This document shows, in pieces, positions 15,755 through 58,293 of a stretch of DNA of 64,000 bases; position 1 is the first letter of the stretch; the number at the start of each line of letters is the position of its first letter. The notes beneath the pieces are model-generated. The model was not told the origin of the DNA, did no database searches, and saw only the letters and a list, made by a program, of their open reading frames with translations. Both the position numbers and the translations under genes were made by a program. The stretch covers positions 4-64,003 of the forward strand of contig JAZGEW010000068.1 of the NCBI GenBank assembly GCA_036478875.1, written 5' to 3'. The DNA comes from Promethearchaeia archaeon. GTDB taxonomy: Archaea > Asgardarchaeota > Lokiarchaeia > Sigyniarchaeales > SOKP01.

Positions 15755-18424
15755 ATGTCAAAAAAATCATTTGGTTCTGGTTATTTTGGTGAATGGATTG
15801 AAGATGAATTCGGATTACCTGCTTACCGTTATACTTGCGACCAAATAAATGATCCTAAAGCAATTATTCCTTTAAATGAAAAGTTGCGCTCTAATAAAGA
15901 ACACTTACACCAAATTGGAAATGATCGCTTAGTCGGAGTTGCTTCAAATTTTGGTTATGTTCAAGTTCGTCAAGACGAAGGATGTCCAAAATTCCTTAAT
16001 GATTATGATCCCGAGCAAAATCAGTTCGCAGGAGGGTTTGGATATTTAGTTGATGGAGAAAATCTATTAAGTACATTTTATTCAGGAAACGGAGACTCAT
16101 TTAATCGAATTTTTGGGATTGGTTACTTACGTAAAATTGTTAAAGGGCATGATTTATCAGTGGATCAAGTTATTTTTGCACCTTATGGAGATGATCCTTT
16201 ACTTATTTCTCAAGTTACAATTTCAAATAATACTGAACAATCGAAAAATTTACGGTGGATAGAATATTGGGGATGTAAAATGTTTCAATTTTCGGCACTT
16301 GCATATTATACAGCTTTTGGGCAAAAAGATCTTTCATTAATGAATAAAAAGCGAAGAGAATTTAGTTCAAAATTTTCACATGAATTTTCATTAATAGGTA
16401 ATTCTGGTTTATTAGAAGCTAAATATTTTCAAGGTCGGAAAGATGAAAACAAAAGAGAAATACCCAAACCTGTATATGAAAGCAAAAAGTCCCCTAAGAC
16501 ATTTCTTGTTTCATTAAATGGTCCTATTGAAGGTTTTAGTACTAATGGGTTTGATTTTTTTGGAAAAGGAGGCGTTGAGCTTCCTGATGGAGTTAAAGGA
16601 ACTCTTCCTTCTAATTTAGATACTGTAGACGATAAAAGTGCAATGATAGTAGAACAACGAGTTCATTTAAAACCAAAAGAGAGTCGAACTTTATATTTTG
16701 CATATGGTTATTTGCCTAAAGGCGTTTATCTCGATCAAGTTTTAAAAGATTATAAAAAAGAAATTGATAATCAATGGGATTATTCCTCTGAAAGTTGGAA
16801 AAGAAATATAGTTAAATTGTCTATTTCTAAAGAAGCGTGGGTAGAACGTGAAATTATATGGCATAATTATTATTTACGTAGTGCGATGACTTATGATGAT
16901 TATTTCAATGAGCACATTCTTTCTCAAGGACATGTCTATCAATATATAATGGGAGTTCAAATAGCGGCACGAGATCCACTACAGCATATATTACCTTTTA
17001 TTTTTTGCGAACCCAAAATTGTTAAAGAAATTATTAGATACATTTTAAAAACGGTTAAAGAAGATGGAGAAATTCCGTATGGGGTCATTGGTAATGGAAA
17101 GATTATACCATTGCCATTTTTTCCTAGTGATCTTGAATTATGGTTATTATGGGTTACTAGTGAATATATACTAGCTACAAGAGATAAAGAATTTTTAGAG
17201 GAAGTAATTCCGACTTATCCTCTTTATGGTAAAGAAGCTAATACATCAACAGTTTTAAAAATGCTAATATTGTGTTATAACCATTTTACAGAAATTACTG
17301 GAACTGGAAAGCATGGACTCCAAAGACTCTCAACAGGTGATTGGAATGATGGTGCTGTAATGGGACATGTTCCAGAAGAAAAACATGAGGAGGTGAGAAT
17401 TCATGGAGAAAGTATTCTTAATACTACTATGGCAATTTATGTTCTCAGTAAATTTGCGGATTTATTGAGTATTATTGAAAACTATGATATGGTTGATGAG
17501 GTCATTAAGTATGCCGAATCTTTGAAAAAAGCTGTTAAAGCTCAGTGGAATGGACAATGGTTTAAGCGAGCGTGGTTTAACGACGATCTTGGCTGGATTG
17601 GAGATGAAATATTATGGTTAGAACCTCAACCATGGGCTATTATAGGAGATGCTGTTGATAATGACTGGATTCCAATTTTAATAAATAATATTGACAAGTT
17701 GTTACGAAATTCATCAAAGATTGGAGCGAGGCTACTAAGCAAAGGCATTGATGTAATGAAAAAAGAAGTTGGTGTGCGAGCGAATGGGGGAATTTGGCCA
17801 TCCATTAATGGAACATTAATATGGGCCTTATCCTGTGTAAATAGTGAAATGGCTTGGGATGAATGGAAAAAAAATACACTTGCATTTCACGCAGAGGCTT
17901 TTCCTGATATATGGTATGGAATTTGGAGCGGACCAGATACATATAACTCTGATCTCTCAATATACCATGGACAAACTCACTTTTTTGAATATTTTATTAC
18001 AGGAGATCCAAAAGATAAAAAAATTATGTTAGAAGACCCATTCGGAGTAAACTGGACAGATTTTCCTGTTATGAATTTACATCCACATGCTTGGCCATTA
18101 TATAATATAATACATTTGATAGGAGCGAAATTCACTGAAGAAGGTATAGAATTTTCACCAATTTTACCAAAAGAAAAATATAATTTCTCTTCTCCAATAT
18201 TGGGTTTTAAAAAAACAAAAGAAGGATATTCTGGTTGGTATGCTCCTCTTGTTGAAGGAAATTGGAAAGTTACATTGAATCTAGATAAAGATGAATTAAA
18301 GCAATTTATAAGGTTAGAAATAAATGAGAAAGAAAATGAAATTAGCTTTATAGAAGATCAGATAGTTTTTTATGGTAGAAGTGAACAAAATAAACCATTA
18401 AGATGGAAAATAAAAAAGTCTTAA
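15755..18424 (+). CDS. large (alpha/alpha)6-barrel glycoside hydrolase/phosphorylase-like protein (GH94 / 'GH36-superfamily'-like)
   Basis: 889 aa. The 'LSTGDWNDG' motif is characteristic of cellobiose-phosphorylase-like catalytic domains. The exact family was not determined. Confidence 0.5.
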   Translation: MSKKSFGSGYFGEWIEDEFGLPAYRYTCDQINDPKAIIPLNEKLRSNKEHLHQIGNDRLVGVASNFGYVQVRQDEGCPKFLNDYDPEQNQFAGGFGYLVDGENLLSTFYSGNGDSFNRIFGIGYLRKIVKGHDLSVDQVIFAPYGDDPLLISQVTISNNTEQSKNLRWIEYWGCKMFQFSALAYYTAFGQKDLSLMNKKRREFSSKFSHEFSLIGNSGLLEAKYFQGRKDENKREIPKPVYESKKSPKTFLVSLNGPIEGFSTNGFDFFGKGGVELPDGVKGTLPSNLDTVDDKSAMIVEQRVHLKPKESRTLYFAYGYLPKGVYLDQVLKDYKKEIDNQWDYSSESWKRNIVKLSISKEAWVEREIIWHNYYLRSAMTYDDYFNEHILSQGHVYQYIMGVQIAARDPLQHILPFIFCEPKIVKEIIRYILKTVKEDGEIPYGVIGNGKIIPLPFFPSDLELWLLWVTSEYILATRDKEFLEEVIPTYPLYGKEANTSTVLKMLILCYNHFTEITGTGKHGLQRLSTGDWNDGAVMGHVPEEKHEEVRIHGESILNTTMAIYVLSKFADLLSIIENYDMVDEVIKYAESLKKAVKAQWNGQWFKRAWFNDDLGWIGDEILWLEPQPWAIIGDAVDNDWIPILINNIDKLLRNSSKIGARLLSKGIDVMKKEVGVRANGGIWPSINGTLIWALSCVNSEMAWDEWKKNTLAFHAEAFPDIWYGIWSGPDTYNSDLSIYHGQTHFFEYFITGDPKDKKIMLEDPFGVNWTDFPVMNLHPHAWPLYNIIHLIGAKFTEEGIEFSPILPKEKYNFSSPILGFKKTKEGYSGWYAPLVEGNWKVTLNLDKDELKQFIRLEINEKENEISFIEDQIVFYGRSEQNKPLRWKIKKS

Positions 18425-39439: not shown

Positions 39440-39832
39440 ATGAGAAAAATGGGTAAAAAATGGAGATTTGCTTACTGCAGTAATTGTGAGAAAGAAATTG
39501 ACAAACCAAAAAGAAAATTATTTGATAGTATGTATTATAATGTCTGGATTCTAGTGATTATAGCTTCATTAGGGCTTGGAATTATAGCTTTTCTGGTTTA
39601 TCACTATGTAATTATAAAGAAGAATCTTTGTCCAAATTGCCAGAATCAATTAAAGTTCTATAGCTCTCGAGACGAAATTCCAGAACCAAAAGCTGAAATC
39701 ACCCGAATTCTGCAAACTATCGAACAAGAAAAACAATTAAGAACCAATAGTGGAAATTGCCCATTTTGTCAAGAAGAAATAAGTAACCAAGACCCCATTT
39801 GCCCAAAATGCGGGGCTTCTCTTAAAGAATAA
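39440..39832 (+). CDS. LITAF-like split zinc-knuckle membrane protein with C-terminal zinc ribbon (paralog 1 of 3)
   Basis: 130 aa. Architecture: CSNC, ~17 aa, ~23-aa hydrophobic helix, CPNC, linker, then 'CPFC...CPKCG'. Confidence 0.6.
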   Translation: MRKMGKKWRFAYCSNCEKEIDKPKRKLFDSMYYNVWILVIIASLGLGIIAFLVYHYVIIKKNLCPNCQNQLKFYSSRDEIPEPKAEITRILQTIEQEKQLRTNSGNCPFCQEEISNQDPICPKCGASLKE

Positions 39833-39885
39833 AAATATATATGATTATTACTATTCATTATTTTAAAATTGGAAGTGAAAAAAAA

Positions 39886-40263
39886 ATGACAACTTTAAAC
39901 CCAACTGGATGGTGTCCACGGTGCCAGCAGAATGTATTATTAAAACGTGAAGAAATTGATACTTGTCTTGCAATAATACTATTAATTTTTACTGCAGGAA
40001 TTGGTTTAATAATATATCTTGCTGTTTATTATTCTCGCCCAGAGCAGAATTGTATACACTGTGGTTATAAAATCACAGCTCTTCAAACTCAGAGTCCTTA
40101 TACATCTCAACCTCAAATTCAGCAATCTTCATATCCTACACCAGCTAATATATCTGAAGAGGTAACAGGTGTTAAGCCTAATTTTTGTGCACTATGTGGA
40201 GAAAAATTAGACATGGGAATAAAATTTTGCCCGAATTGTGGGAGCCAAATTACAGAAAATTAA
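39886..40263 (+). CDS. LITAF-like split zinc-knuckle membrane protein with C-terminal zinc ribbon (paralog 2 of 3)
   Basis: 'WCPRCQQNV...TCLAIILLIFTAGIGLIIYLAVYY...NCIHCG' followed by 'FCALCGEKL...FCPNCG'. I prefer the ATG at 39886 over the track start at 39841, because the earlier codons add only a non-conserved leader. Confidence 0.6.
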   Translation: MTTLNPTGWCPRCQQNVLLKREEIDTCLAIILLIFTAGIGLIIYLAVYYSRPEQNCIHCGYKITALQTQSPYTSQPQIQQSSYPTPANISEEVTGVKPNFCALCGEKLDMGIKFCPNCGSQITEN

Positions 40264-40398
40264 TTTCTTTTTATATTCTTTTTATATTTTAGAAACGTTT
40301 TTACTTCTTAAATTTAAAAATTGGACTCCAAATTTTTTTAATTCAATTAAGATCTCCTATAAATTAAATAATAAAAAGCAATTTGGAGTGATAGAAAA

Positions 40399-40767
40399 AT
40401 GTATTGTCCAAAATGTAATAAAAATGTATATACTAAAAAGAATGATTTTAATATTGGTCTAGCCATATTTTTAGCTATATTTACTGGTGGTATTGGCTTA
40501 TTAATTTATGTTGCTGTTTATTTAGATAGGGAACATAAACCTCGTTGTATCCATTGTGAATCAATCTGTTATAAACAAATGGAAATTAATCAACCAGTTT
40601 CAAATTATCAGGTGATTACTACCTCTAATCAAGGGCAAAGTCAAGAATTCATCTTAGAATCACATAAAAGTAAAGGAAATTCAAGGTTTTGTCATAATTG
40701 TGGATCTGAGCTAGATCTAAGTGAAAATGCTAAATTCTGTGCACTTTGTGGGAACTCAACACAATAA
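40399..40767 (+). CDS. LITAF-like split zinc-knuckle membrane protein with C-terminal zinc ribbon (paralog 3 of 3)
   Basis: 'YCPKCNKNVYTKKNDFNIGLAIFLAIFTGGIGLLIYVAVYL...RCIHC' followed by 'FCHNCGSEL...FCALCGN'. Confidence 0.6.
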   Translation: MYCPKCNKNVYTKKNDFNIGLAIFLAIFTGGIGLLIYVAVYLDREHKPRCIHCESICYKQMEINQPVSNYQVITTSNQGQSQEFILESHKSKGNSRFCHNCGSELDLSENAKFCALCGNSTQ

Positions 40768-43359: not shown

Positions 43360-43890
43360 ATGTCTAAAAATTCCATTGCTCTTATTGGTTTTATGGCGAC
43401 TGGAAAAACAACCGTAGGTAGAGCGTTAGCTAAATATATTGGTGATGATTATCAATTTATTGAAACTGATCAATTAATAATTCAAGAAACTGGTAAAGCA
43501 ATTCCGAGTATTTTCACTGAAGAAGGAGAAGATAAATTCAGAGAATATGAAAGTGATGTATGTGAAAAAGTCTCGAAATTAAATAAAGTGGTTATTTCTT
43601 GTGGAGGAGGAATAGTCTTAAATAAGAAAAATGTTGAAAGTATAAAGAAAAATTGTCACATTGTCTTACTAAGGGCATCTCCGAAGGAAATTTATGAACG
43701 AATAAAAAAAAATGGAAAAACATCAAGACCTGTCATTAATATAAAAGATTCTAAAAGAGATATTAAAGAAATTCTGAAATTTCGAAAACCTTATTACAAA
43801 GAAGCAGCGGAAATTATTATTGATACATACAAAAAAAATATTGAGAATATTGTGAGAGAGATTGCTATAAAAACTCTACTAAAAACCTAA
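43360..43890 (+). CDS. aroK: shikimate kinase, P-loop AroK/AroL type
   Basis: 176 aa with 'IALIGFMATGKTTVGRALA', 'DTD', 'FREYE' and 'ISCGGGIV'. Confidence 0.85.
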   Translation: MSKNSIALIGFMATGKTTVGRALAKYIGDDYQFIETDQLIIQETGKAIPSIFTEEGEDKFREYESDVCEKVSKLNKVVISCGGGIVLNKKNVESIKKNCHIVLLRASPKEIYERIKKNGKTSRPVINIKDSKRDIKEILKFRKPYYKEAAEIIIDTYKKNIENIVREIAIKTLLKT

Positions 43891-43949
43891 ATTTAAATTT
43901 ATCAATTTTACTAAATATTTAATTTATTATATATGATAATTTGGTTAAC

Positions 43950-44149
43950 ATGACGGAATTTAAAAGAGTTAAATGTCCCCAATGTGGCAATGAGAATCCA
44001 CGTAAGCTTTATGAAGAGCCGGACAGGAATAACGTGCTTTACTACAGTATAGGCAAAGCTATTTCAGCTAACCGCTGAAGCAGGGCACTCCCGTTTATGC
44101 GAAAACTATGAAGTGTGGAAATTGCGGAAATCTTTTTAAAAAGAGTTAA
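43950..44149 (+). pseudogene. disrupted small zinc-ribbon gene (two CxxC halves in different frames)
   Basis: Frame A reads MTEFKRVKCPQCGNENPRKLYEEPDRNNVLYYS... and stops at 44076-44078. A second frame continues ...QGTPVYAKTMKCGNCGNLFKKS to a stop at 44147-44149. Together they would form a four-Cys zinc ribbon. Confidence 0.3.
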
Positions 44150-44188
44150 TTTATTAAAAAAAAAGTTTTTTTATTTATTTTTTTATTT

Positions 44189-44809
44189 TCACATCAAGGA
44201 TAACACTATTTTATTTTGAGCTTTTAACATGTCTTCCATAATAAGCTCCATAGCATCTTTAATATCCGGGTTATTATCAGGAATACTACGTTTAGCGTTC
44301 ACACTTGCCATTAAAACTTCATTCAATCCACGTAAGATCATATCAGGACTGTACCAAGGGCGTTTCGAAGCCCACCATTGCTGACAGCTGTGAATTCCCC
44401 GATCTAACAGATTTCTTGCGTTATCAAATATCCTTTTCTTCTCATCATCCATTCCATCCCGATATTTATCAGAGAGATGGATTAACGTAAGGGCGTACAT
44501 GAAAAACCGGTGTTGTTCAAGGTGAATTTCATTGTTAGGGTCGAGCCAGAGAGGAAATGGCACATCTGAAGCAATATCGTAGGGCATTGTCGACCAACTG
44601 GAATCTCGTGGGACTTGATTAAAGCCTTTAGGAAATTTATCAACTATTTCCGAGACAGTACATAATTTCACGTCGTCTCTATGTGGCAACGCACCAAATA
44701 GGGGTATGAGGAAATCCTTTATAGCGTGTTTTTTGGAAGTTTTTCGAATCTTTTCCCACTTTCGTATAATATTACAAAGATACAAAGGGGTTTTCGTGAT
44801 ACGGTACAT
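44189..44809 (-). CDS. hypothetical protein, possibly a C-terminal fragment of a larger (GH57-like?) enzyme
   Basis: 206 aa with clearly higher GC than its surroundings. 'DSSWSTMPYD...FPLWLDPNNE...IHSCQQWWASKRPWYSPDMI' loosely recalls GH57 C-terminal regions. No credible N-terminal catalytic part lies upstream. Confidence 0.3.
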   Translation of the reverse strand: MYRITKTPLYLCNIIRKWEKIRKTSKKHAIKDFLIPLFGALPHRDDVKLCTVSEIVDKFPKGFNQVPRDSSWSTMPYDIASDVPFPLWLDPNNEIHLEQHRFFMYALTLIHLSDKYRDGMDDEKKRIFDNARNLLDRGIHSCQQWWASKRPWYSPDMILRGLNEVLMASVNAKRSIPDNNPDIKDAMELIMEDMLKAQNKIVLSLM

Positions 44810-44928
44810 ATATTTCGTGATACGCTATTTTGGGGGAATTTAGATTAATTGAGAATTTTAAAAGTGTGGTTTTTAAGATAGTTTTATAGGATTTTTTTTG
44901 AGGAATCGCTAGTTGGAGACGTAAGTTC

Positions 44929-45174
44929 ATGGGGAGGAAGAGGAAATTCGGGGAAGAGTCGGATTTTGTAAGCGTTCGTGTTCCAAAGAGCAAGAGAAAG
45001 GAGTACAGAAATGCAATTCGAGATTTTGTAGAAAAGAAGTTTGCGAGTGATTCTACTGCTGATAGTGAAGTTTCCAAAGTCAAGATTAATAAAAAGGATT
45101 TAAACGGATTTCGGAAATTTGAGAAGTTTTTAAAGGATGTTAAGAGGCAGGATGACAGGGAAGAACAGGAATAA
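44929..45174 (+). CDS. small basic protein, possible ribbon-helix-helix-like DNA binder
   Basis: 81 aa. 'FVSVRVPKSKRKEYRNAIRDFVEKK' has a beta-strand-then-helix pattern like CopG/RHH proteins. Its stop overlaps the next ATG (TAATG). Confidence 0.35.
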   Translation: MGRKRKFGEESDFVSVRVPKSKRKEYRNAIRDFVEKKFASDSTADSEVSKVKINKKDLNGFRKFEKFLKDVKRQDDREEQE

Positions 45175-45416
45175 TGGGTTGTAATAAGCTAAATTATTTA
45201 TATTCGAACCTCTTAGTATTTTTTATGGGAAAGTGTCCATATTGCAGTAAAGAACTTCATATAGAGGATTTCTATGAATCTATTACAAAAGAGACGAAAA
45301 AAGGAGAGGTTAAAACAAGATTAGGACCGTTTATAGGGGAGACAACACCTGGAGGATTTGCTTATATGTGGGTTTGTCCATCCTGTGATACCATTTTGGG
45401 ATTTACAGGACATTAA
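45174..45416 (+). CDS. small zinc-ribbon protein
   Basis: 80 aa, or 63 aa from the internal 'MGKCPYC' at 45225. It has CPYC ... CPSC knuckles and is coupled to the upstream ORF by an overlapping stop/start. Confidence 0.4.
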   Translation: MGCNKLNYLYSNLLVFFMGKCPYCSKELHIEDFYESITKETKKGEVKTRLGPFIGETTPGGFAYMWVCPSCDTILGFTGH

Positions 45417-45530
45417 TGGTATTAGCTATGTACTTAAAGTATCTTTACTCATAAGGGAATTAAGGAGAAATGCAAGGAAAAGAGGAAGAGAAGGAGTAGT
45501 GGATAGTAGGTTAGTTTATATTTATTTTGC

Positions 45531-45553
45531 GAAACCACCCCTTCGGTGGTTTC
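45531..45553 (+). other. perfect 9-bp stem / 5-nt loop hairpin (GAAACCACC-CCTTC-GGTGGTTTC)
   Basis: Read directly from the sequence. It is GC-rich relative to the genome and sits in a ~400-nt region without a convincing ORF. It could be a terminator or part of an ncRNA. Confidence 0.3.
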
Positions 45554-45819
45554 TGCTGCTTCCGACTGCTCATTTTCAAAGGGTACTCGGTTCTTTTGCT
45601 CATTTCATATCGCTTCAGAACCGTCGCTCCTTTAAAAATTCGATTGTGTGTAAGAAAAGCGCCTTATTTCTAGACCTGTATAGGAGATTGGGTAACTGGT
45701 TTTTTGCATAAATGTAAAATATTTATAAATCCATTAATTTTCTAATTTAAAGAGGTAGAAAGTACAATAAATTAATATTTAAAGAAAGGTAACTGTACCT
45801 GTACTTAAAAACCATTATT

Positions 45820-46827
45820 ATGTCAGAGAAAAAGGATATGAAAAAACGAGTTAAAGAATTTTTAAATGGTAATGAAAATGATTTTTATTCCCAAATTAAA
45901 GATAAGTCATATTTAGAATATCACTTCGGAGATATTGAAGAACAAGCAGACTTATTAAAGGACATAAATAAGTTACGAGAAATTGTTCATTTGTTTACTG
46001 ATAATTTTGATAAATTAGCAATTGGTACAGGAATGATTGATAAGGATTTATATCAACAAATAAACAACATTATAAAAGTTTCCTTTGAATTCAATACTAA
46101 AAAATTCTATATATTAGTGGGATTGTTTTTATCTCACATCGAAACAAAATACCCGTTCCATAAGTTAACGTACAATCTACTATTCATCCGAGAAAATTAT
46201 CCAGAATTTTACAAATTATTTAAAGAAACACCATTATCTGGACTACAAAACCAAATTGTCTCTACGCTATATAAATTGATTGAAGAAAAGCAAGAAGATC
46301 AATTTTATGACTATTTTTTTGATTGGGTACTTAAATTTGGTTACTTAATCGAAGCCTATGTGAAGGAAATTTTGATATTTCATCAAGGATTGGATTATCT
46401 TCTAAAAAATAAGAATTTTAATGAAATTAAAAAAAAGGATTTAACTGTAGGAAATCTAGTTAGGAATTTAAAGGCTGATAAGACAATCGCATTATATCGG
46501 AATTCAATATTCCATACAAGCTTTCTCCTACATTATAATATTAATCTTGAAGAGAAAAAGATTACTTTTCTAGATTTATATGGTAAATCTAAAATTATTA
46601 CCATAGAAGAGTTTATTGCAGGTTATTTTAAATTACTCAAGGTTGTATTTACTTACATCTGTGCAATAATATTCCATCCTTTTATCGTTTATAAAGAAAC
46701 AATCAAAACTTATTTAAAAAAGAAAATCGATCCTTTTCTCCGAGAATTAACTAAAATTGACAAGGATGATTTTATTAAGAAAATGAAAGAAATCCAAGAA
46801 GATCTCGATAAAAGATTTAACAAATAG
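45820..46827 (+). CDS. hypothetical protein with HEPN-like R-N-x3-H motif
   Basis: 335 aa, predicted all-helical. 'ALYRNSIFH' (46498-46515) matches the Rx4-6H HEPN RNase motif. Confidence 0.45.
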   Translation: MSEKKDMKKRVKEFLNGNENDFYSQIKDKSYLEYHFGDIEEQADLLKDINKLREIVHLFTDNFDKLAIGTGMIDKDLYQQINNIIKVSFEFNTKKFYILVGLFLSHIETKYPFHKLTYNLLFIRENYPEFYKLFKETPLSGLQNQIVSTLYKLIEEKQEDQFYDYFFDWVLKFGYLIEAYVKEILIFHQGLDYLLKNKNFNEIKKKDLTVGNLVRNLKADKTIALYRNSIFHTSFLLHYNINLEEKKITFLDLYGKSKIITIEEFIAGYFKLLKVVFTYICAIIFHPFIVYKETIKTYLKKKIDPFLRELTKIDKDDFIKKMKEIQEDLDKRFNK

Positions 46828-47093
46828 ACGATGTTATACTATAATCTATTTCTTTAAATTAGATCTCAGAATCGAAGGAAAGTCTACAACATTAAAGAAA
46901 TATTTGGATAATTTGTCAGCATCTGATATATTTGAGGAAAGGGAGGGGACAAGGCTTAAGGTTCGAAAAATTTTGTAGTTTCGCTTATTATAAATATAAT
47001 AGATATTGGTATTGATGAGCATGAAGTTTGTGGTTAATTGTGCTTGACGCTGAAAGTCTTTAATCTAATTAGGTTTTTGCTTCGCGACTGTAC

Positions 47094-47108
47094 GGGGGAC
47101 AAGCCCCC
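47094..47108. terminator. GC hairpin GGGGG-ACAAG-CCCCC between convergent genes
   Basis: It lies 20 nt downstream of the stop of the minus-strand gene 47128..48141 and downstream of the plus-strand gene ending at 46827. The stem is unusually GC-rich for this genome. Confidence 0.35.
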
Positions 47109-47127
47109 GCTATCTATAATTTAATGA

Positions 47128-48141
47128 CTACTCTAAAAATAATTTCTTAAGATCTTCTTGATCAGAATCTTCATTTAACACAAGTTCTAAAAAAGATAAC
47201 ATGAATTCAGACATTTCACTTTCTTTAGGGGAATACTCTTTCATACGTTCAGTCCGATATTTTATAATTTCTTTATCCCTCTTAGATTTAAAGATTGGTT
47301 TTAGTTTATCTTGAAAATTTTTAAGAAATTCAAATAACCCTATCATGAATATATTAGCTATATTTTGCTCGTTTAATTCCTCACCAATTTCAAGGTTGAG
47401 TTGTTCATGCTTTATTGGAAAATTATCTAAAAGCATATTAATAAAAAAATCCTTTAATTCAGGAGTCACATTTTGAAGTTTGTTAATTTTTTCAAGTGAA
47501 TCTTCGTCGAAAGCTTCCATACATTCTACTAAGCCTGATAGAGTCTTAATTAAGATTTCGAAATTTTCAGAATCTATTTGTTCGGGTTCGCCAAATTTCT
47601 TATAGACGTCTCTCTCAACTTGGAGATATGGAATTGCTTTTTCTAATTTAATTTTAAGACTTTCAGCATGTCTTTTAGTAATATGAGTAGGGCTTAAAAA
47701 GTTAGTCTTGGCGTTATTTAGAGACACATAGATACCATGAATCCGTAAATACCATAGATTTTCTGCTTTTTGTATTTCTTCTGAGAACTTATGTACTTCT
47801 GTTTTGTTTATCTTATTCTTACTTTGGAGTAATAGTTCATATAATTTGCTTAGATACCCGAATGGCTCTTGAGTTGTAAATAAACTTATTATATTTGGAA
47901 TAACAAGCTTTTTTCTATGATTAAGGAATTTTTCAAGCTTTTGTGGTTTGGGTGTATCATAATTCTTTAAAATAAAATATGCTACACCCATTTCTTCAAA
48001 GGCAGTTATAAAAGAAAAACAAGCATGCCCGTATGAGCCGTTTTCCATTAATAATTTTCCATCCTCATATAATTGAATAACATTTCCAATAGAAATATCG
48101 ATTCCCTTTTGCCACGTTTCTACATTCAAAAACTCACACAC
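47128..48141 (-). CDS. AbiV-like (HEPN-superfamily) abortive-infection-type protein
   Basis: 337 aa. The N-terminal 'NVIQLYEDGKLLMENGSYGHACFSFITAFEEMGVAYFILK...FLNHRKKL' resembles the AbiV-family helical domain. Confidence 0.4.
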   Translation of the reverse strand: MCEFLNVETWQKGIDISIGNVIQLYEDGKLLMENGSYGHACFSFITAFEEMGVAYFILKNYDTPKPQKLEKFLNHRKKLVIPNIISLFTTQEPFGYLSKLYELLLQSKNKINKTEVHKFSEEIQKAENLWYLRIHGIYVSLNNAKTNFLSPTHITKRHAESLKIKLEKAIPYLQVERDVYKKFGEPEQIDSENFEILIKTLSGLVECMEAFDEDSLEKINKLQNVTPELKDFFINMLLDNFPIKHEQLNLEIGEELNEQNIANIFMIGLFEFLKNFQDKLKPIFKSKRDKEIIKYRTERMKEYSPKESEMSEFMLSFLELVLNEDSDQEDLKKLFLE

Positions 48142-48300
48142 CTCAAACTTAATTTAATTATAAATCTGAAATTTTGCCTACTTAATATGATCATAAAAAT
48201 ATCAAGATATAAATAATACTGTCAACCTTAAAATTGAAATTAAAACTGGAAGATGAAGGATGGCTTAGTATGAATACCTTTAGTCCTTTTTAATTTTTGA

Positions 48301-48447
48301 TTATGAAATGGTGAAAATCTGGAGTTCATAATCTTTATCTGGGTTTATTTTACCTGAGCGAATATATTCAATGGGGATATTGAAATAATAGTTCTTTCCT
48401 TTCTTTGTGGGTTTTTTTATGAGCGTGGTAACTAATCTTGATTCCAT
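48301..48447 (-). CDS. small (48 aa) AbrB/SpoVT-like DNA-binding protein candidate
   Basis: Manual translation gives MESRLVTTLIKKPTKKGKNYYFNIPIEYIRSGKINPDKDYELQIFTIS. The 'yyfnIPieyir...i...d.eL.i' pattern resembles swapped-hairpin AbrB domains. It is divergent from the 48587 operon and below the ORF-track cutoff. Confidence 0.3.
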   Translation of the reverse strand: MESRLVTTLIKKPTKKGKNYYFNIPIEYIRSGKINPDKDYELQIFTIS

Positions 48448-48471
48448 AGTATACTATTAAGTAATATACTA
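48447..48471. promoter_or_regulatory. imperfect inverted repeat TAGTATACTA-ttaag-TAATATACTA at the divergent promoter region
   Basis: The 10-nt arms carry one mismatch. The repeat overlaps the start codon of the small minus-strand ORF and is followed by the TATA-like ACTATATATAT. Confidence 0.25.
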
Positions 48472-48586
48472 TATATATGTTTTGATATAATACACAAAAT
48501 CAACTGGGTCTAAGGAGATATAAGGGCAATAAATATTATTCTAAGTATAACACTTGATCTAACACTAATAAAAGATGTGAATCAAA

Positions 48587-48901
48587 ATGAGCATAATAGT
48601 TGGCAGAAAGCACGGGAATGGGTATCATGATAGTGTTTACTGCAGAATAAACGTTGAATATTCTGAGAAATTTAAGGATCTGCTAGACTATGAACAGCGT
48701 CAACTAAAAGAGCATTCGGGAGTCATTTATGAACGGGAATTTATAGCTTCGTGGATTAAAAGAATTTGTATTAAATGTCCTTTAACGTATCCTAGGAAAT
48801 ATTTGGAAAAACAAGGTAATATTTTTGTATGTCCAGAGTGCGGATTGAAAAAAATACCTAAAGGGGTAGCATATAGAGAGGGGAAGAAAGCAAATGGTTA
48901 A
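48587..48901 (+). CDS. zinc-ribbon protein, first gene of the island module
   Basis: 104 aa with 'CIKCPLTY...VCPECG'. It overlaps the next ORF by 8 nt. Confidence 0.45.
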   Translation: MSIIVGRKHGNGYHDSVYCRINVEYSEKFKDLLDYEQRQLKEHSGVIYEREFIASWIKRICIKCPLTYPRKYLEKQGNIFVCPECGLKKIPKGVAYREGKKANG

Positions 48902-49097
48902 AGTTACAATTCTGGAACGGAATAAGGACTTTCTTATAAAGGAAATAAGGTATAAAAAAGCCCGTTTTAATAGAAAATTCAGAGATAAAACAGTAATTTT
49001 AGCATATGTTAATGAGAACCTTAACAACATATTAAATAATAGAAATCTGAAAGAAATTGAGAATACCGATAAATTAACTAACTCCTTTTTTTTATAA
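48894..49097 (+). CDS. small basic hypothetical protein
   Basis: 67 aa and Lys/Arg/Asn-rich. It overlaps the upstream ORF, and its coding status is uncertain. Confidence 0.3.
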   Translation: MVKVTILERNKDFLIKEIRYKKARFNRKFRDKTVILAYVNENLNNILNNRNLKEIENTDKLTNSFFL

Positions 49098-49143
49098 CTT
49101 TTAATAAATTAATGAACAATGAAAATAAGAATTAAAAAAAGTC

Positions 49144-51483
49144 GTGATCAAAATTATGGATGTTTCAGTAAAAAATCAATGTAAGTATAAGCAGTGGTTA
49201 TTAAAAAAACCATTTCAAAAAGACTATGAAGATAAGCTATTGAACTTTTTAGACGATTATATTAAAAAGCTTACCCTTCCAGCGACTTACAAGAGATTAT
49301 CATTTACTATTTATAGAGATATTTTACATTCAATTGAGAGTACTCCTGAAGAGTCTAAATTTAATGTATTTTATGAAAATCTTGATATAATTAAAGGAGC
49401 TAGATATATATCAGCTTCCTTATTATTGCTTGCCCTTTTAAAAAATGAAATAACCATTAAACAGCAAGATTTAGCTCTATTGTTAAATTTAAATAATCAA
49501 TTTAATATTAGCAGAACTTTCAATAGTTTAATCACCTACTTAAAGCGACTCCCAAGCTATTCATACATTTATAGGTTTATTTCTGTTAGAAATCTATCGA
49601 AGCAGGAATATAAAAATGCATGTTTAGAAAATATTAATTATTTTTCTAATCTTTTAATTAGGCAAAATCTAATTAATGAAAATGAGGTTGATGCCATTGT
49701 ATTGTTGTTTACCACGCTTTATGATAAAATTATTGAAGAATTAAATAGTGTAATGCTAAAGCATCCTAAATATATAGCTTCTACAATTTGCTGGATTTAT
49801 TTAACCTATTATAAGGATTTTGATATCACAGGCACTCAATTTGTAAGCATAATTCATTTGAGAAAAGATACCAGATTTAAAGGAAACAACAAATTGACTG
49901 AAGATATACTTATAACCGATCCCCGATTATTATCAAAAATTAAGAACGATTTTATTCGAAAAATTTTCGAGTTAGATTTGAATTTATATAAATCTAAAGT
50001 AAAAACCTGCTTAGATGATTATATATTTAAAATAAAGCTTTGGTTTATTCACTCTTTTCCAAATAAAGTTCAACTCAAACATATTTTAAACCTGTTAGGT
50101 CAAAAGTTCTTGACAGAGAGTTTTGAATTATTTGACAGAGCAATTGAAAATGGGTTTCAAATAAATTATTTTGCTAAAACGAATAAGCATTATTACTATT
50201 TTCCGCAAACGATGGCACTTTCTTTAATTTTTTATACTTCAAGAAGCGATAAAGCCCTTCAAGAAATATTAAATGTCAAATTTTTCGAAGCGGTATTTAA
50301 ATCAGATCCGAGTCTGCTTTATTTTAAAAGATCTTTTAGGTATATTACTGAAAAGGAGAATCGCTTATATTCGTTCATTAAAGAGGAGATCGGACGATAT
50401 AAAGGACAAGTCTATTCAAAAGACTCATTTAAGAAAAAATTAACTCATGAGTTAAAACGATTTTATCATTTAGAAACTGATTTCTTGCTTAAACTATACA
50501 ATAAGACTAATCTTTCCCCTTTTGAATTCGGAAAAAAATTAAATATTCACAGCGGACGTGGGGTTACGAGTATTTTACAAGTGGTAGAGAACAAATCTAA
50601 ATTCACAGAACCAAAAACCTTTTTGAACATTAGGAAATTCATCATAAAGTATCTTGAACCTAAAGAACAAAAAAAAGCATTAATATGGCTGAAGAATATT
50701 AGAAATTTACGTTATAATGACTTTCGGCATGGAAGTATCACGTATTCTTTTAAATGGATTAGAACGAGATTTACCAAATTTTTAAATAATTCCCTCTATC
50801 GATACCTTTTTAAACTTTGGAAAGGGAATTATCCAAGGCATATTTTTGTAGATCCTAACAACACCCGTGCTTCAAATCTAAAATTTCACGGAACAAAAGA
50901 AGAACACGTTAAGACTGACATAATAGAGCAGTATTTTTATAATTTTCTTGAAATTTATGATTCTAATTATTATTTATGTCGTCATGCTAGAAGTGTATTT
51001 AGCCATTACAGAATCAATAAGATAGGTAAACAGCCAGATCATCCCCCTATTTTAAATTATATTCTATCCGAAGAAAAGAAAGCTTTAGCTATAGAGATTC
51101 CCGTATGGAAAGAAAGTAATAATCTTGGAAATACTGAATATTTTATTGGTCATATTGATTTGTTGTTAGTAGAGGGTGATACTTTAGTAATTGCTGATTA
51201 TAAGCCAAAATTACGGGAAATTTATAAATCCTTACTGCAAATTACCGCATATGCCATCTTCTTAAGAGATAGATTAGAAAATTACAGTGAAAATGCGAAT
51301 ATTAAGATAAAGTGTGTTGGTTTCACAAAAGATCAGGCAATCGAATGGAATCCAGAGACAATATTTCCTAAAATAATAGAATATGTTGAAAAAGAAAATG
51401 AAAACCGAAAAAATATTCTGTTAACCGCTAGTAGAAAAATTAAAAAAGATTTATTAAATGAATTAAGAAAAATAAAACAATAA
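49144..51483 (+). CDS. large helical-repeat protein with C-terminal RecB-family PD-(D/E)xK nuclease domain
   Basis: 779 aa, starting at GTG 49144 or ATG 49156. The C-terminal motifs are 'AIEIPV', 'GHIDLLLVEGDTLVIADYKPK' (51148-51210; D672 with D685-x-K687) and 'LLQITAYAIFL' (the QxxxY motif of RecB/Cas4-like nucleases). Confidence 0.6.
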   Translation: MIKIMDVSVKNQCKYKQWLLKKPFQKDYEDKLLNFLDDYIKKLTLPATYKRLSFTIYRDILHSIESTPEESKFNVFYENLDIIKGARYISASLLLLALLKNEITIKQQDLALLLNLNNQFNISRTFNSLITYLKRLPSYSYIYRFISVRNLSKQEYKNACLENINYFSNLLIRQNLINENEVDAIVLLFTTLYDKIIEELNSVMLKHPKYIASTICWIYLTYYKDFDITGTQFVSIIHLRKDTRFKGNNKLTEDILITDPRLLSKIKNDFIRKIFELDLNLYKSKVKTCLDDYIFKIKLWFIHSFPNKVQLKHILNLLGQKFLTESFELFDRAIENGFQINYFAKTNKHYYYFPQTMALSLIFYTSRSDKALQEILNVKFFEAVFKSDPSLLYFKRSFRYITEKENRLYSFIKEEIGRYKGQVYSKDSFKKKLTHELKRFYHLETDFLLKLYNKTNLSPFEFGKKLNIHSGRGVTSILQVVENKSKFTEPKTFLNIRKFIIKYLEPKEQKKALIWLKNIRNLRYNDFRHGSITYSFKWIRTRFTKFLNNSLYRYLFKLWKGNYPRHIFVDPNNTRASNLKFHGTKEEHVKTDIIEQYFYNFLEIYDSNYYLCRHARSVFSHYRINKIGKQPDHPPILNYILSEEKKALAIEIPVWKESNNLGNTEYFIGHIDLLLVEGDTLVIADYKPKLREIYKSLLQITAYAIFLRDRLENYSENANIKIKCVGFTKDQAIEWNPETIFPKIIEYVEKENENRKNILLTASRKIKKDLLNELRKIKQ

Positions 51484-51590
51484 TCCTCCACTAAATATTT
51501 AAGATAGTAAGGGGATTAAAATCGCAGAATAATAAATTAATTTAAAAATTTCTAATCTTTTTCAATATATAAGAATTAATTTTTAAAAAA

Positions 51591-52445
51591 GTGGTGAAAT
51601 TAGGAATGCCAAATGCAATATTTTTAGAAGAATACTCATTATATAGAAAATTTGACTATAATCTCCCTCCTATTGTAAGTTTTCCTAAGTTAAGTATTAA
51701 TATGAAATGTCATAATTGCAATGATAAAAGGACATTTATTGGTATGAATGCTTTTTACATAGAGCAAAGTGAAAATATTGATTGTGATCGGTATAGGGAA
51801 ACTAATAGGATGCCGAAAGAAAATAGTCATTATATTTTAAGATATGTTTGCGCTTCTTGTAAAAAGTTCGAACGTTTTTTCATATTAAGAGTTGGTAAAA
51901 ATTTAAAACAAATTTTGAAGATTGGTCAATATCCTCCAAGGGATATTACAATATCTAAAGATCTAGAAAAGATCATGGGTGTTTTTTCTGAGTATTATAA
52001 AAAAGGTTTAATTTGTGAATTTCAAGGTTATGGGATTGGTGCTAATGCTTATTTTAGAAGAATAGTTGAAGGAATTATTGATGATTTATTGGTACAAATC
52101 CCTGATCTAATGAGTGGTGAAGAAAGAGCCCTATATGAAAATGCTTTAGAAGAATCGAGAAAAGCAAAAAACACTCAGGAAAAAATTGCCTTAGTAAAAG
52201 ATTTACTCCCTCCTATTTTAATGCCAGAAAGATATAATCCTTTAAAGACGTTACATGAGGTATTAAGTAAGGGTATACATAACCTTACAGATGAAGAATG
52301 TTTGGAGAACGCTCAAATTATAAAAGACACGTTGATTTTCCTTATAAATAGCATTTTAAAAAGAAAGAAAGAGCAACAAGAATTTTCAGAAGGAATGAAA
52401 AAACTTTTAGAGAAGAAGAAAAAAACAACAGAAATTAAAAAATAA
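51591..52445 (+). CDS. zinc-finger protein with DUF4145-like (HEPN-related) C-terminal helical domain
   Basis: 284 aa, starting at GTG 51591 or ATG 51606. It has 'CHNC ... CASC' knuckles. 'GANAYFRRIVEGIIDDLL ... LHEVLSKGIHNLTDEE' resembles DUF4145. Confidence 0.45.
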   Translation: MVKLGMPNAIFLEEYSLYRKFDYNLPPIVSFPKLSINMKCHNCNDKRTFIGMNAFYIEQSENIDCDRYRETNRMPKENSHYILRYVCASCKKFERFFILRVGKNLKQILKIGQYPPRDITISKDLEKIMGVFSEYYKKGLICEFQGYGIGANAYFRRIVEGIIDDLLVQIPDLMSGEERALYENALEESRKAKNTQEKIALVKDLLPPILMPERYNPLKTLHEVLSKGIHNLTDEECLENAQIIKDTLIFLINSILKRKKEQQEFSEGMKKLLEKKKKTTEIKK

Positions 52446-52490
52446 AATAAGATATTAAAGAAACCTAAAACTAAACTTTAAAAAAATTCA

Positions 52491-53660
52491 ATGAAAATCT
52501 TAGTTCCTGATACAAATCTTTTACTTCATGGAAAATTCATTTCTGAGATTAAATGGAGATCTATCCTTAGAGAGAAAAAGATATGTATATTAATACCACA
52601 TATGATTTTAAAAGAATTAGATAAAGCTAAATATTCAAGCAATACAAATCGTAAAAAAAGAGCAAGGAAATTGATATCTTTTTTCAAGAAATATGAAAAT
52701 AATGAGGAACTTCAGAGGGAAATACCTTTATTCTTTTCTTCTAAAAAGATTAATTGGAGTGATCTCCCCTTGAATTATGATTATTTGCTAGATGAAAATG
52801 AAGCAGATCACCATATACTTGCTGAAATTATACAATATTTCCTTGATCGCTTAGATGATGTATATTTAATTACTGGAGATTTTACACTTTCCAAATTTAC
52901 TTTAGAATTAGGAATAAAGGTAATAGATTGGCTAGAGGATGAAAAATATAAAGATATATTTACACTAGGGGACGAAAAAAAAGAAAAAATGCCTAAACTT
53001 CCTGATTTAGGTTTGTTTTTTGATGAACAATCAGCCAAAGAGTTAACTCTTAAAGAAAAAGATAAAAAACCGAAATTATTGAGTCGTGATGAATTAACTG
53101 AACCTAATGTCCAATATGATATTAAATGGGAACTTGAACATCCAGGAGTTATTAACAATCTGATAAAGTGTTATAATGAGCAATTACTCTTAATCAATAA
53201 ACATCAAGAAATCAATTTATTTGTATTCAACCATTGTGATCACCCATATAATGATATTGACATTTATATTACAGCAACTTTAGAAAAAAATTTCGTATTT
53301 ACTGTGCAACAATTAATAAAATTGCCCCGTAAACCCATAATACCCGAATTAAATGTTAGTTATGTAGGTGATATTCCCTTAAGCCCTCAAGAAGGAATTT
53401 ACAACACTGGAAGTAGTAAAAGGACTATACTAAATAATCTCGGTATGAGAATAGAGTCAGAAGAGAAAGAAAAGCATACTATTTGGAAAGTTATTTATCA
53501 TATGGATCGAATTAAACATAATACATCTATGGAACTCCATCCCCTATTACTATTTATTCCCGATTCATATAAAACCAAAAAAATTCAAATTAAGATTGCT
53601 TATACTCACGAGGAGATAGGTACAATTAAAGCACAGATAAGAACCATTACTCTAGCTTAA
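52491..53660 (+). CDS. PIN-domain nuclease (YlaK/PhoH-associated PIN type) fused to an unknown ~230-aa C-terminal domain
   Basis: 389 aa. The acidic residues fall in the canonical PIN pattern: 'ILVPDTNLLLHG', 'LIPHMILKELDKAK', 'ENEADHHILAEI' and 'YLITGDFTLSKFTLELGIKV'. Confidence 0.6.
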   Translation: MKILVPDTNLLLHGKFISEIKWRSILREKKICILIPHMILKELDKAKYSSNTNRKKRARKLISFFKKYENNEELQREIPLFFSSKKINWSDLPLNYDYLLDENEADHHILAEIIQYFLDRLDDVYLITGDFTLSKFTLELGIKVIDWLEDEKYKDIFTLGDEKKEKMPKLPDLGLFFDEQSAKELTLKEKDKKPKLLSRDELTEPNVQYDIKWELEHPGVINNLIKCYNEQLLLINKHQEINLFVFNHCDHPYNDIDIYITATLEKNFVFTVQQLIKLPRKPIIPELNVSYVGDIPLSPQEGIYNTGSSKRTILNNLGMRIESEEKEKHTIWKVIYHMDRIKHNTSMELHPLLLFIPDSYKTKKIQIKIAYTHEEIGTIKAQIRTITLA

Positions 53661-54034
53661 ATTAAATATATTCAATTGTATAACAGCAATAATAAAGAAA
53701 ATTAAATTTAAAAAATGATTATAAATGGATTTAAATATATGGCGGAAGGGATTAAAATTATCTAATGAAAATATTACACGCTTAAGAGATAATGGATTAA
53801 TTCTAATGGAAAATCATTTATGATTGTATATTATGCTTGTAAAAAATTTTATCTTTGTATAATATTATACAAGCTAAAAGGGTGTTTAAAATAAAATCCT
53901 CTTTTATTATAAAAAAATTAAAAGAAAAGTGATAAAATGAACGATTTAAAAAAACAAAATATACTACCATATAATAAACTAAAAATCCTACTTTTTTTAA
54001 TCTTTATAGTTCTAATTTTAGAAATTAGAAAATT

Positions 54035-56937: not shown

Positions 56938-57612
56938 ATGAAAATAGGAACAGAAACAATAAATCCGACAAAGATTATCTGCATTGGCACAAATTACATG
57001 GATCATATAGAAGAAACCGGTTTGAACGTTCCGAAAGAACCAATTCTTTTTCCGAAAACATTAAATTGCTTAATTTCAAATAATGATCCTATAATTTATC
57101 CCAAATTTTTGTATACTCAACGTAAATATAATAGAGTTGATTACGAGGTAGAATTGGCATTTATCATAAAAGATAAATGTAAATACGTTCCAATAAATGA
57201 AGCATACAATCATATACTTGGATATACAGTATTTAATGATGTAACAGCAAGAAAAATGCAAGCTAAAGATATTGTATCAAAATTACCATGGTTTCGATCA
57301 AAATCTTTTGATACTTTTGGTCCAATTGGTCCTAAGATTGTTAATACGGGTGAAATCAAAGATCCACATAATTTGAAAATTGATTTAAAATTAAATGGAG
57401 AAATTAAACAATCATCTAACACTAAACATTTATTATTTAAAATTCCTAAACTCGTAGAGTACATTTCCACTTTTTTCACTCTTGAAGCAGGGGATATTGT
57501 AGCTACAGGGACACCCAGTGGAATTGGACCAATACAACCAGGTGATATCATTGAAGCAACAATAGAAAAAATTGGAACTCTTACAAATAGAGTTGTTTTG
57601 GAAGGTGAATAA
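56938..57612 (+). CDS. fumarylacetoacetate hydrolase (FAH) family protein
   Basis: 224 aa with 'IICIGTNYMDH', 'DYEVELAFII' and 'GDIVATGTPSGIGPIQPGD'. Confidence 0.85.
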   Translation: MKIGTETINPTKIICIGTNYMDHIEETGLNVPKEPILFPKTLNCLISNNDPIIYPKFLYTQRKYNRVDYEVELAFIIKDKCKYVPINEAYNHILGYTVFNDVTARKMQAKDIVSKLPWFRSKSFDTFGPIGPKIVNTGEIKDPHNLKIDLKLNGEIKQSSNTKHLLFKIPKLVEYISTFFTLEAGDIVATGTPSGIGPIQPGDIIEATIEKIGTLTNRVVLEGE

Positions 57613-57621
57613 AGAATTAAT

Positions 57622-58293
57622 ATTAAGATTGGAAATAAAACAATAGAACCAACGAAAATTATTTGTTTGGGGCGAAATTATATAGATCATGCAAAGGAGA
57701 TGAAAGCCCAAATACCAAAAAGTCCAGTTTTTTTCGTAAAAACTGTAAATACTTTGGTGACTGATGGAAATCCAATAATATATCCGAAGTTATTATATAA
57801 TGATACAGAATATAATCGAGTAGATCATGAAGTAGAATTAGCATTTGTAATTTCTAAGACTTGTAAAAATATTCAAGTTGAACATGGGTATGAATTTATT
57901 GAAGGATACTCTGTTTTTCTTGATATAACTGCAAGGAAAATGCAGATTAGTGATAGAAATATCAATTTACCATGGTATAGAAGCAAAAATTTTGATTCCT
58001 TTGGCCCTATTGGTCCGAGAATAGTACCTTTCGATGAGATAAAAGATCCTCATAATTTAAACATTCAGTTAAAAGTTAATGGGGAAACTCGTCAGGAATC
58101 AAATACGAAACATATGATTTTTAAAATTCCAGAAATGTTAGCTTATCTTTCCAAATTTATCACATTAGCCCCCGGAGATATTGTAGCAACAGGTACACCT
58201 AGTGGGGTAGGTCCAATTCAACCAGGAGATAATATTGAAGCTTCAATAGATCAAATTGGAACGATCATCCATAAGGTTATTTTGGAAGAATAA
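57622..58293 (+). CDS. FAH family protein, tandem paralog; conserved N-terminus begins at an ATT codon (first canonical start is TTG 57667)
   Basis: It aligns codon-for-codon with the upstream paralog from ATT AAG ATT GGA (compare ATG AAA ATA GGA). 'IICLGRNYIDH', 'DHEVELAFVI' and 'GDIVATGTPSGVGPIQPGD' are present. Confidence 0.75.
   Translation: MKIGNKTIEPTKIICLGRNYIDHAKEMKAQIPKSPVFFVKTVNTLVTDGNPIIYPKLLYNDTEYNRVDHEVELAFVISKTCKNIQVEHGYEFIEGYSVFLDITARKMQISDRNINLPWYRSKNFDSFGPIGPRIVPFDEIKDPHNLNIQLKVNGETRQESNTKHMIFKIPEMLAYLSKFITLAPGDIVATGTPSGVGPIQPGDNIEASIDQIGTIIHKVILEE

Follow-up and report, generated by a model that had tools for sequence, protein, structure and literature searches.

Do five genes that follow one another almost end to end on the same strand make up one defence system, or several that have become neighbours? 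The question arises at positions 48587-53660 of a 64,000-nucleotide (nt) stretch of Lokiarchaeial DNA (contig JAZGEW010000068.1; this whole stretch is hereafter called the window), where five open reading frames (ORFs) lie on the plus strand and a small sixth ORF points away from them. The original prediction, made from the letters of this DNA, proposed that the five form a single multi-nuclease system with a defence-type logic. All five are present where it placed them, with the short gaps and the overlap that it described. They are listed here together with the divergent ORF; F779 is our label for the family of the 779-amino-acid (aa) protein.

48587-48901, plus strand: Zn-ribbon ORF, 104 aa, CxxC-x17-CxxC
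48894-49097, plus strand: 67-aa ORF, doubtful as a gene
49144-51483, plus strand: F779 gene, 779 aa, probable start ATG 49156 (775 aa)
51591-52445, plus strand: 284-aa gene, probable start ATG 51606 (279 aa)
52491-53660, plus strand: PIN gene, 389 aa, with PIN_4 at residues 4-146 and a C-terminal domain at residues ~170-389
48301-48447, minus strand: 48-aa ORF, divergent from the F779 gene

What the original prediction said of a defence-type logic and of nuclease and RNase signatures holds up, but not its single multi-nuclease system. On balance, the five ORFs are probably a mosaic of independently exchanged, mostly single-gene conflict modules around a resident F779 gene, which we regard as a candidate single-gene defence nuclease. 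The defence function of F779 is one that we infer from the observations described below.

Gene neighbourhoods at 28 loci

Gene neighbourhoods were compared at 28 distinct loci that carry an F779 member (compared loci are given L-numbers), and their ORFs were screened by family hidden Markov models (HMMs) and by clustering. The 284-aa family lies beside F779 at three of these loci (the window, L007 and L021), and the PIN family at two, the window and its 87%-identical relative L007. Thus, 25 of the 28 loci are without the 284-aa family and 26 are without PIN, while the 779-, 284- and 389-aa genes stand together in the window and L007 only. This comparison, a conservation check that the original prediction had itself set, does not bear out a co-operating system of five genes.

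Homologues of the PIN protein and of the 284-aa protein each turn up by themselves in other places, bacteria, phages and plasmids among them. The PIN contexts L009-L014 and L019 contain neither F779 nor the 284-aa family, and at L022 a 62%-identical 284-aa homologue lies between unrelated genes, without F779 or PIN. The Zn-ribbon and 67-aa ORFs behave as insertions or deletions even between close relatives. A BLAST single-linkage grouping of LRR and STAND proteins with the F779 cluster was judged spurious, as the family HMM had no match to them.

Comparison at the DNA level divides the locus into conserved blocks (43543-45145 and 48305-51496) and variable ones (45146-48304 and 51497-53838). 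The second variable block is followed by a stretch that can be placed in two relatives:

53839-53962: block homologous to the DNA just downstream of the F779 genes of L001 and L015 (blastn, 89% identity to L015 12526-12656)

The L015 F779 gene ends at 12334. Because the block at 53839-53962 matches DNA downstream of F779 in L001 and L015, the 284-aa and PIN pair is an insertion relative to these two, placed 13 nt past the F779 stop codon. A 14-mer present at both edges of this insertion, AAGGGGATTAAAAT, was considered as a recombination site and rejected, since it occurs at chance frequency (3 found against 3.4 expected in the window). The part of the 284-aa cassette that is common to L021 begins about 75 nt before the start codon and ends at the stop codon. 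From these shared boundaries it follows that the 284-aa cassette brings its own A/T-rich, promoter-like upstream region.

What speaks for a single system, comprising the five genes and the divergent small ORF, with the large protein as sensor and the HEPN-like and PIN proteins as effectors, is largely the arrangement itself. The genes are co-directional and tightly spaced (the first two ORFs overlap by 8 nt, and the later gaps are 46, 107 and 45 nt), the 779-284-389 order is the same in L007, and L021 has a 284-aa homologue directly downstream of a divergent F779-family gene (25-32% identity). Five co-directional genes are by themselves weak evidence, arising by chance about once in 16 cases. 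Against this reading stand the many F779 loci without the supposed partners, the solitary homologues of those partners, and cassettes that come with their own upstream regions. We regard it as largely refuted and attach very little probability to it.

All ORFs are under purifying selection in comparison with relatives (dN/dS 0.06-0.33). The start codons ATG 49156 and ATG 51606 are likely because public gene calls agree with them. Only the window and L007 have an intact 67-aa ORF; in L008 it is cut down to 44 aa, L006 has a disrupted copy and L015 lacks it, and for this reason it is doubtful as a gene. Possibly it serves the 779-aa gene as a leader or a regulatory sequence.

Domains, distribution and inheritance of F779

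The original prediction held the 779-aa protein to be undescribed, and this still applies: all source-named F779 clusters are annotated "hypothetical", and no Pfam or PADLOC family matches above threshold. Direct sequence matches of the 779-, 284- and 389-aa proteins to solved structures yielded none that was significant. For the 779-aa protein, structure prediction followed by Foldseek, one of the checks that the original prediction had proposed, returned a TFIIB-like and a Cas4/RecB fold. The AF2 model was built from a 26-sequence alignment and has an overall pLDDT of 86 (with an alignment of 7 sequences the C-terminus was modelled poorly, pLDDT 63), and it was searched against PDB and BFVD, a collection of predicted viral structures. 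The two predicted regions are as follows:

50971-51423, plus strand: RecB/Cas4-type PD-(D/E)xK domain, F779 residues ~610-760 (motifs, Pfam, Foldseek)
49216-49863, plus strand: tandem TFIIB/TFB-like cyclin folds, F779 residues ~25-240 (Foldseek)

Motif conservation and Pfam counts were determined for 26 family members. E651, H670-x-D672, D685-x-K687 and Q699xxxY703 are invariant or nearly so; K687, Q699 and Y703 are fully invariant, while the D685 position varies inside the (D/E)xK motif. Pfam PDDEXK_1 matches 22 of the 26 members at E<=1 (best 2e-5), with the window protein scoring 20.6 bits, just under the gathering cut-off of 22. PADLOC Cas4 models match the window protein at E 0.002. The model has a pLDDT above 90 across the nuclease domain, and its nuclease matches in PDB comprise Cas4 SSO0001, the RecB nuclease domain, MGME1, Pcal_0546 and RecE (chains 4ic1, 8b1t_B and 4r5q at probability 0.77-1.0, and 5zyu at 0.63). 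In BFVD, a phage RecB-like exonuclease is matched at E 3e-3. The model and the motifs show that the C-terminus of F779 has the predicted restriction-endonuclease-like alpha/beta fold of the RecB/Cas4 branch, with an intact catalytic motif. The PD-(D/E)xK domain with QxxxY that the original prediction read in this protein is therefore supported by motif conservation and predicted fold. F779 does not appear to be Cas4 proper: of the four-cysteine Fe-S set only C612 and C724 are conserved, and no cas genes were found in any of the 28 loci.

For the N-terminal part, Foldseek matches in PDB are to TFIIB, TFB and Brf cores and to cyclins, among them P. woesei TFB (1ais_B and 1d3u_B) with a target TM of 0.50-0.51 and a probability of 1.0. 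The best match in BFVD is a giant-virus TFIIB-repeat protein (E 1.2e-5, 374 columns), and the second is a Brf1/TFIIB homologue (E 7e-4). Searched against PDB sequences, the F779 profile gave seven weak matches, five of which are TFIIB/TFB cores (TFB E 0.9-2.3). The TFIIB/TFB profile alignments place F779 residues ~27-125 onto both cyclin repeats, including the helices that bear the helix-turn-helix (HTH). The predicted structure shows an N-terminus of two tandem TFIIB/TFB-like cyclin folds, followed by helical and HTH-like domains. A minority of F779 members have a fused N-terminal CxxC...CxxC ribbon, as in TFIIB, and the window protein has none. We found no description of a TFIIB-like/nuclease fusion in the searchable literature.

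A word-indexed search recovered six F779 homologues, and an exhaustive profile search recovered 280 cluster representatives. About 25 of the 280 are full-length; many consist of the C-terminal half only (HTH region and nuclease), and this half is found alone or behind different N-termini. All 11 source-named clusters come from Asgard metagenome-assembled genomes (MAGs) of Promethearchaeota/Lokiarchaeota, Thorarchaeota and Hermodarchaeota, and the family has no matches in IMG/VR or PLSDB. The F779 gene is vertically inherited. Its dN/dS is 0.21-0.30, and between the window and L015 the F779 proteins are 65% identical, compared with 49% for the adjacent dehydroquinase (DHQ).

Exchangeable modules and the surrounding island

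The 284-aa product is identical to an annotated protein in a Candidatus Lokiarchaeia MAG and belongs to a family of at least 961 homologues in archaea and bacteria. The four cysteines of a Cys4 ribbon (C40, C43, C87 and C90) are invariant, as are R156, R157 and H230, and the helical domain is conserved. The DUF4145/HEPN-related domain that the original prediction assigned to this protein was not confirmed. None of 27 family members matches Pfam DUF4145 (PF13643) at E<=1, and PADLOC gave no significant match among the same 27. Alignment of the family by hhalign with three DUF4145 proteins from related loci reached E 0.0014, at a probability of only 18% and over 39 columns, which cover the GxH...(D/E)E...A region around the motif. 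At the Arg position of the HEPN R-x(4-7)-H motif, the 284-aa protein has His (H222-x7-H230). The public record of a 50%-identical homologue carries the label "DUF4145 domain-containing". Judged from sequence, it is plausible that the helical domain is a divergent DUF4145/HEPN-like one.

The 284-aa family matches PHROG 25239 over its full length (E 3e-41) and is present on 17 IMG/VR contigs and on Leptospira and Bacillus plasmids. A homologue also occurs in the temperate Autographiviridae Rhizobium phage vB_RleA_TRX32-1 (L057, MW023914.1 18515-19384), as a lone opposite-strand gene between the genes for the major capsid and the head-to-tail connector (collar, Gp8), which is the position of a classic moron. 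Zn-ribbon fusions of DUF4145 were noted earlier (PMC3710099), and in RAZR (PD-T7-4), a single-gene abortive-infection protein, a Cys4 zinc finger acts as the sensor of ring-shaped phage proteins, after which DUF4145/HEPN cleaves RNA (PMC13017515). The 284-aa gene is a self-contained mobile single-gene cassette with a RAZR-like architecture. Separately, a 209-aa protein encoded upstream of the F779 homologue in a Thorarchaeota MAG (L008 700-1329) combines a CxxC...CxxC ribbon with Pfam DUF4145, and is a true RAZR-type architecture within the same island family.

In the 389-aa protein, the PIN domain of the original prediction is clearly present: Pfam PIN_4 matches at E 2e-11 (44.5 bits against a cut-off of 21.9), and D7, E42, D106 and D130 are invariant among 12 homologues. 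The C-terminal ~220 residues are conserved and match nothing in the collections searched. Of 13 homologues found, the sole source-named one is labelled Promethearchaeota, and the family has no IMG/VR matches. Homologues with 45-61% identity (L009, L010, L012 and L019 among them) adjoin DUF87/AAA_22/DNA methylase genes, SLFN_AlbA_2 or a gene for a 1455-aa protein. The PIN gene is thus an independent cassette.

The divergent 48-aa ORF is kept in seven loci, in six of which it lies divergently upstream of an F779-family gene (the window, L006, L008, L015, L021 and L024). The seventh copy, in L022, adjoins an unrelated gene; its 452-aa neighbour there was considered as a hidden F779 member and rejected. 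The 48-aa ORF is the most strongly constrained of all ORFs here (dN/dS 0.06). While the small divergent ORF of the original prediction is present, its AbrB label found no support in Pfam, NCBIfam, PHROGs or PDB sequences, none of which gave a match to the AbrB/SpoVT swapped-hairpin domain, and this label is a motif resemblance only. The protein is probably a DNA-binding regulator. A perfect 12-bp palindrome, ATAGTATACTAT (window 48440-48475), overlaps the start codon of the 48-aa ORF within a well-conserved divergent intergenic region (87% identity to L008), and may be an operator.

Only three loci, the window, L006 and L024, have the 104-aa Zn-ribbon ORF beside F779, and neither L008 nor L015 contains it. 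Its Zn-ribbon Pfam matches are all sub-threshold, and no similarity was detected to the N-terminal Zn ribbons fused to some F779 members. We infer that its product is an optional accessory of the F779 gene. Farther upstream lies a further module:

47128-48141, minus strand: AbiV-like HEPN gene, 337 aa (Pfam, NCBIfam, PADLOC)

Its product matches Pfam HEPN_AbiV (56.1 bits against a cut-off of 27.1), NCBIfam TIGR04498 (46.7 bits against 27) and PADLOC AbiV (E 1e-8). The gene is missing at the corresponding position in L001, L006 and L008, and is an independent abortive-infection-type module in the variable part upstream of F779.

All of these genes lie within 44151-54034, a variable, defence-island-like region that interrupts a shikimate-pathway cluster of a Lokiarchaeial chromosome. 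Its left flank consists of genes for shikimate dehydrogenase, prephenate dehydrogenase, flavin reductase and shikimate kinase (43360-43890, the last housekeeping gene), and its right flank of genes for type I 3-dehydroquinase and adenylate kinase. To either side of F779 the content varies among genomes whose F779 proteins are 63-87% identical. In a second clade, the F779 homologue adjoins a ferredoxin gene, and here too it has variable inserts on both sides. The Pfam matches of F779 neighbours in relatives include AbiJ_NTD4, DUF4145, Hypoth_Ymh HEPN, SLFN_AlbA_2/AAA_15 and DUF87, as well as AbiTii, HEPN_Apea, DUF4062, Eco57I-type restriction-modification (N6_Mtase) and CHAT-NACHT-LRR (STAND-like). 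Other genes in the slots around F779 encode TPR-phosphoesterase, kinase-HD and subtilase proteins.

The edges and borders of the island carry gene fragments. The conserved left edge is marked by the first of these:

44189-44809, minus strand: truncated GH57 glycoside hydrolase, C-terminal half

This fragment is 89-97% identical at the amino-acid level to the C-terminal 179 aa of full-length GH57 in L007, L006 and L001. In L001 and L006, the 3' half of GH57 occurs twice, as inverted repeats of 534-566 nt (83-88% complementary) that bracket ~11 kb with the F779 homologue (L001 668-1233 and 13079-13644; L006 600-1133 and 11565-12098). The window retains the truncated left copy only, and the full GH57 gene is absent at the locus. 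The repeats could reflect an invertible segment or old rearrangements. In relatives, cassette borders also carry partial direct duplicates of the DHQ 3' end with its downstream DNA, ferredoxin fragments and a remnant of the F779 3' end. These duplicates lie at L001 16016-16130 versus 18211-18325, L001 14248-14314 versus 15937-16003, and L018 4714-5244 and 16747-17115; the ferredoxin fragments in L018 and L019 are up to 96% identical, and the F779 remnant comprises 76 aa (L021 8450-8680, HMM positions 690-762). Partial duplicates at cassette borders suggest repeated replacement or integration events.

The original prediction had offered a plasmid or virus replication or partition module as an alternative, and this finds no footing: there are no viral or plasmid matches for F779, no integrase was seen, and the gene is inherited vertically. 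An integrated virus or plasmid was likewise rejected, with F779 lacking matches in IMG/VR and PLSDB, PIN lacking matches in IMG/VR, no tRNA genes in the window and no integrase seen. Aloposons, Asgard transposons with giant genes, are unrelated to the locus (PMC8813620).

Further observations concern other parts of the window, which has a G+C content of ~28-30% and no Rfam matches at gathering thresholds. At 45524-45645 (L001 2547-2668), a 122-nt block is 92.6% identical to its counterpart, compared with 73-82% around it, and is G+C-rich in a genome of 28% G+C. Strong folding is predicted for both strands (z -4.6 and -6.1), including a perfect 9-bp GC-rich hairpin (GAAACCACC/GGUGGUUUC), and the block belongs to no Rfam family. 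It lies within the island's variable part and may encode a small RNA or act as a site of recombination or regulation. Outside the island, three successive small plus-strand genes (130, 140 and 122 aa) lie at 39440-40767; the first two end in a double-zinc-ribbon, and the third has a sub-threshold match to Zn_Ribbon_1. At 56938-58293, two adjacent paralogous genes of the fumarylacetoacetate-hydrolase family (224 and 208 aa) are followed by a gene for a CheB-like methylesterase, in which a receiver domain is matched weakly and below threshold.

Proposed function, rival readings and known systems

If F779 serves in defence, its TFIIB-like/HTH part would recognise DNA, a TBP-promoter-type complex or a virus-encoded factor, and its RecB-type nuclease would then cut the invading DNA, with the divergent 48-aa protein regulating its expression. 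In the 284-aa protein, the Cys4 Zn ribbon would sense a viral protein and the HEPN-like domain would then degrade RNA in abortive infection, by analogy with RAZR. The 389-aa protein would join a PIN RNase effector to a C-terminal domain that is presumably a sensor. Asgard wyrdviruses encode their own TFB. In a more specific version, which we consider unlikely, F779 would be an Asgard immune nuclease that mimics TFB, binding TBP-promoter complexes on the invader or acting as a decoy for viral factors, and then destroying the invader.

Several points weigh against a mosaic built around a defence nuclease. The defence role of F779 is drawn from guilt by association and from its fold. The defence neighbours come from the annotated subset of genes, and on the side of the fold, the Foldseek E-values in PDB are weak (>=0.01) and the Pfam TFIIB repeat matches one of 26 F779 members (E 0.016). 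The HEPN call for the 284-aa protein is unproven, with no Pfam or PADLOC match and the canonical Arg replaced. The 779-, 284- and 389-aa genes may be co-transcribed in this genome. Finally, slow evolution, vertical inheritance and fixed positions in two clades are less typical of defence genes, and fit a housekeeping or regulatory role. F779 would then be a lineage-specific factor, such as a TFB paralogue that takes part in DNA processing or repair coupled to transcription, and its defence neighbours would be incidental. Vertical inheritance with a dN/dS of 0.2-0.3, stronger conservation than that of the adjacent DHQ gene, a chromosomal position that is stable within each clade and the TFIIB-like fold all agree with such a role. 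The distribution of F779 does not, being patchy (~280 cluster representatives) and not universal in Asgard. Nor does its proximity to Abi, HEPN, restriction-modification and STAND genes, which recurs in many independent settings, or the joining of its HTH and nuclease module to varied N-termini, a sensor/effector modularity typical of conflict genes. We give a housekeeping or regulatory role a small share of the probability.

The island also invites the idea that F779 is itself the agent or the target of cassette turnover, a recombination or integration nuclease resembling a new cassette-capture or mobile element. Variable cassettes lie on both sides of F779 in two unrelated settings (shikimate/GH57 in clade 1, ferredoxin in clade 2), partial duplicates of the F779 3' end, ferredoxin, DHQ and GH57 sit at cassette borders, most of the cassettes downstream of F779 are co-oriented, and there was no sign of an integrase. 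However, no recombination-site motif common to the junctions was found, the candidate 14-mer being at chance frequency, and ordinary replacement by homologous or illegitimate recombination can account for the remnants. F779 has no matches in viral or plasmid collections, and we know of no RecB-type QxxxY nuclease that acts as a site-specific recombinase. The arrangement is not an integron-like array either: no tyrosine recombinase was seen, and the cassettes carry their own upstream regions and promoters, unlike integron cassettes. We judge a role of F779 in cassette turnover to be improbable, and favour the mosaic of independent conflict modules around a resident, candidate defence nuclease.

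Archaeal immunity, above all that of Asgard archaea, is poorly charted. F779 is an Asgard-restricted, database-unnamed family of ~280 clusters that joins a predicted TFIIB-like fold to a RecB-type nuclease and lies in defence islands. An immune function would make it a new type of sensor and would tie a fold of archaeal and eukaryotic basal transcription to the defence of the genome; without such a function, it would still be a TFB-derived nuclease that had gone unrecognised. Should the TFB mimicry prove true, the lineage closest to eukaryotes would have provided, in F779, the first defence protein with origins in the basal transcription machinery. The locus also indicates that tight co-directional clusters in such islands can be mosaics of independent cassettes, which matters for automated defence-system discovery.

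Each part of the locus resembles a known system and departs from it. With RecB/Cas4-family nucleases, the C-terminal ~170 residues of F779 share the D...(D/E)xK...QxxxY motif and the predicted fold. F779 differs from them in having no Fe-S cysteine set, no CRISPR or helicase partner, and an extra N-terminal TFIIB-like/HTH region of ~600 residues. That region shares predicted tandem cyclin folds with the TFIIB/TFB/Brf core, virus-encoded TFBs included. In contrast to TFIIB/TFB, however, the window protein has neither a fused Zn ribbon nor a B-reader/linker, and F779 shows no significant sequence membership and carries several additional domains together with the nuclease fusion.

Like RAZR, the 284-aa protein has an N-terminal Cys4 Zn ribbon ahead of a helical domain that contains a conserved His motif and an RR helix, and its gene is likewise stand-alone, in prokaryotes, prophages, phages and plasmids. 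It differs from RAZR in that its family has no detectable sequence relationship to it and in that the catalytic Arg is replaced by His (H-x7-H). The N-terminal 146 residues of the 389-aa protein match PIN_4, as in PhoH-associated PIN RNases and the PIN toxins of defence islands; unlike these, the protein has no adjacent antitoxin and carries a fused C-terminal domain of ~220 residues. The region as a whole corresponds to known defence islands and hotspots, in which exchangeable Abi, HEPN, restriction-modification and STAND genes likewise lie between conserved core genes. It differs from them in having a conserved F779 gene as its anchor and, at its borders, partially duplicated pieces of GH57, DHQ, ferredoxin and F779 itself.

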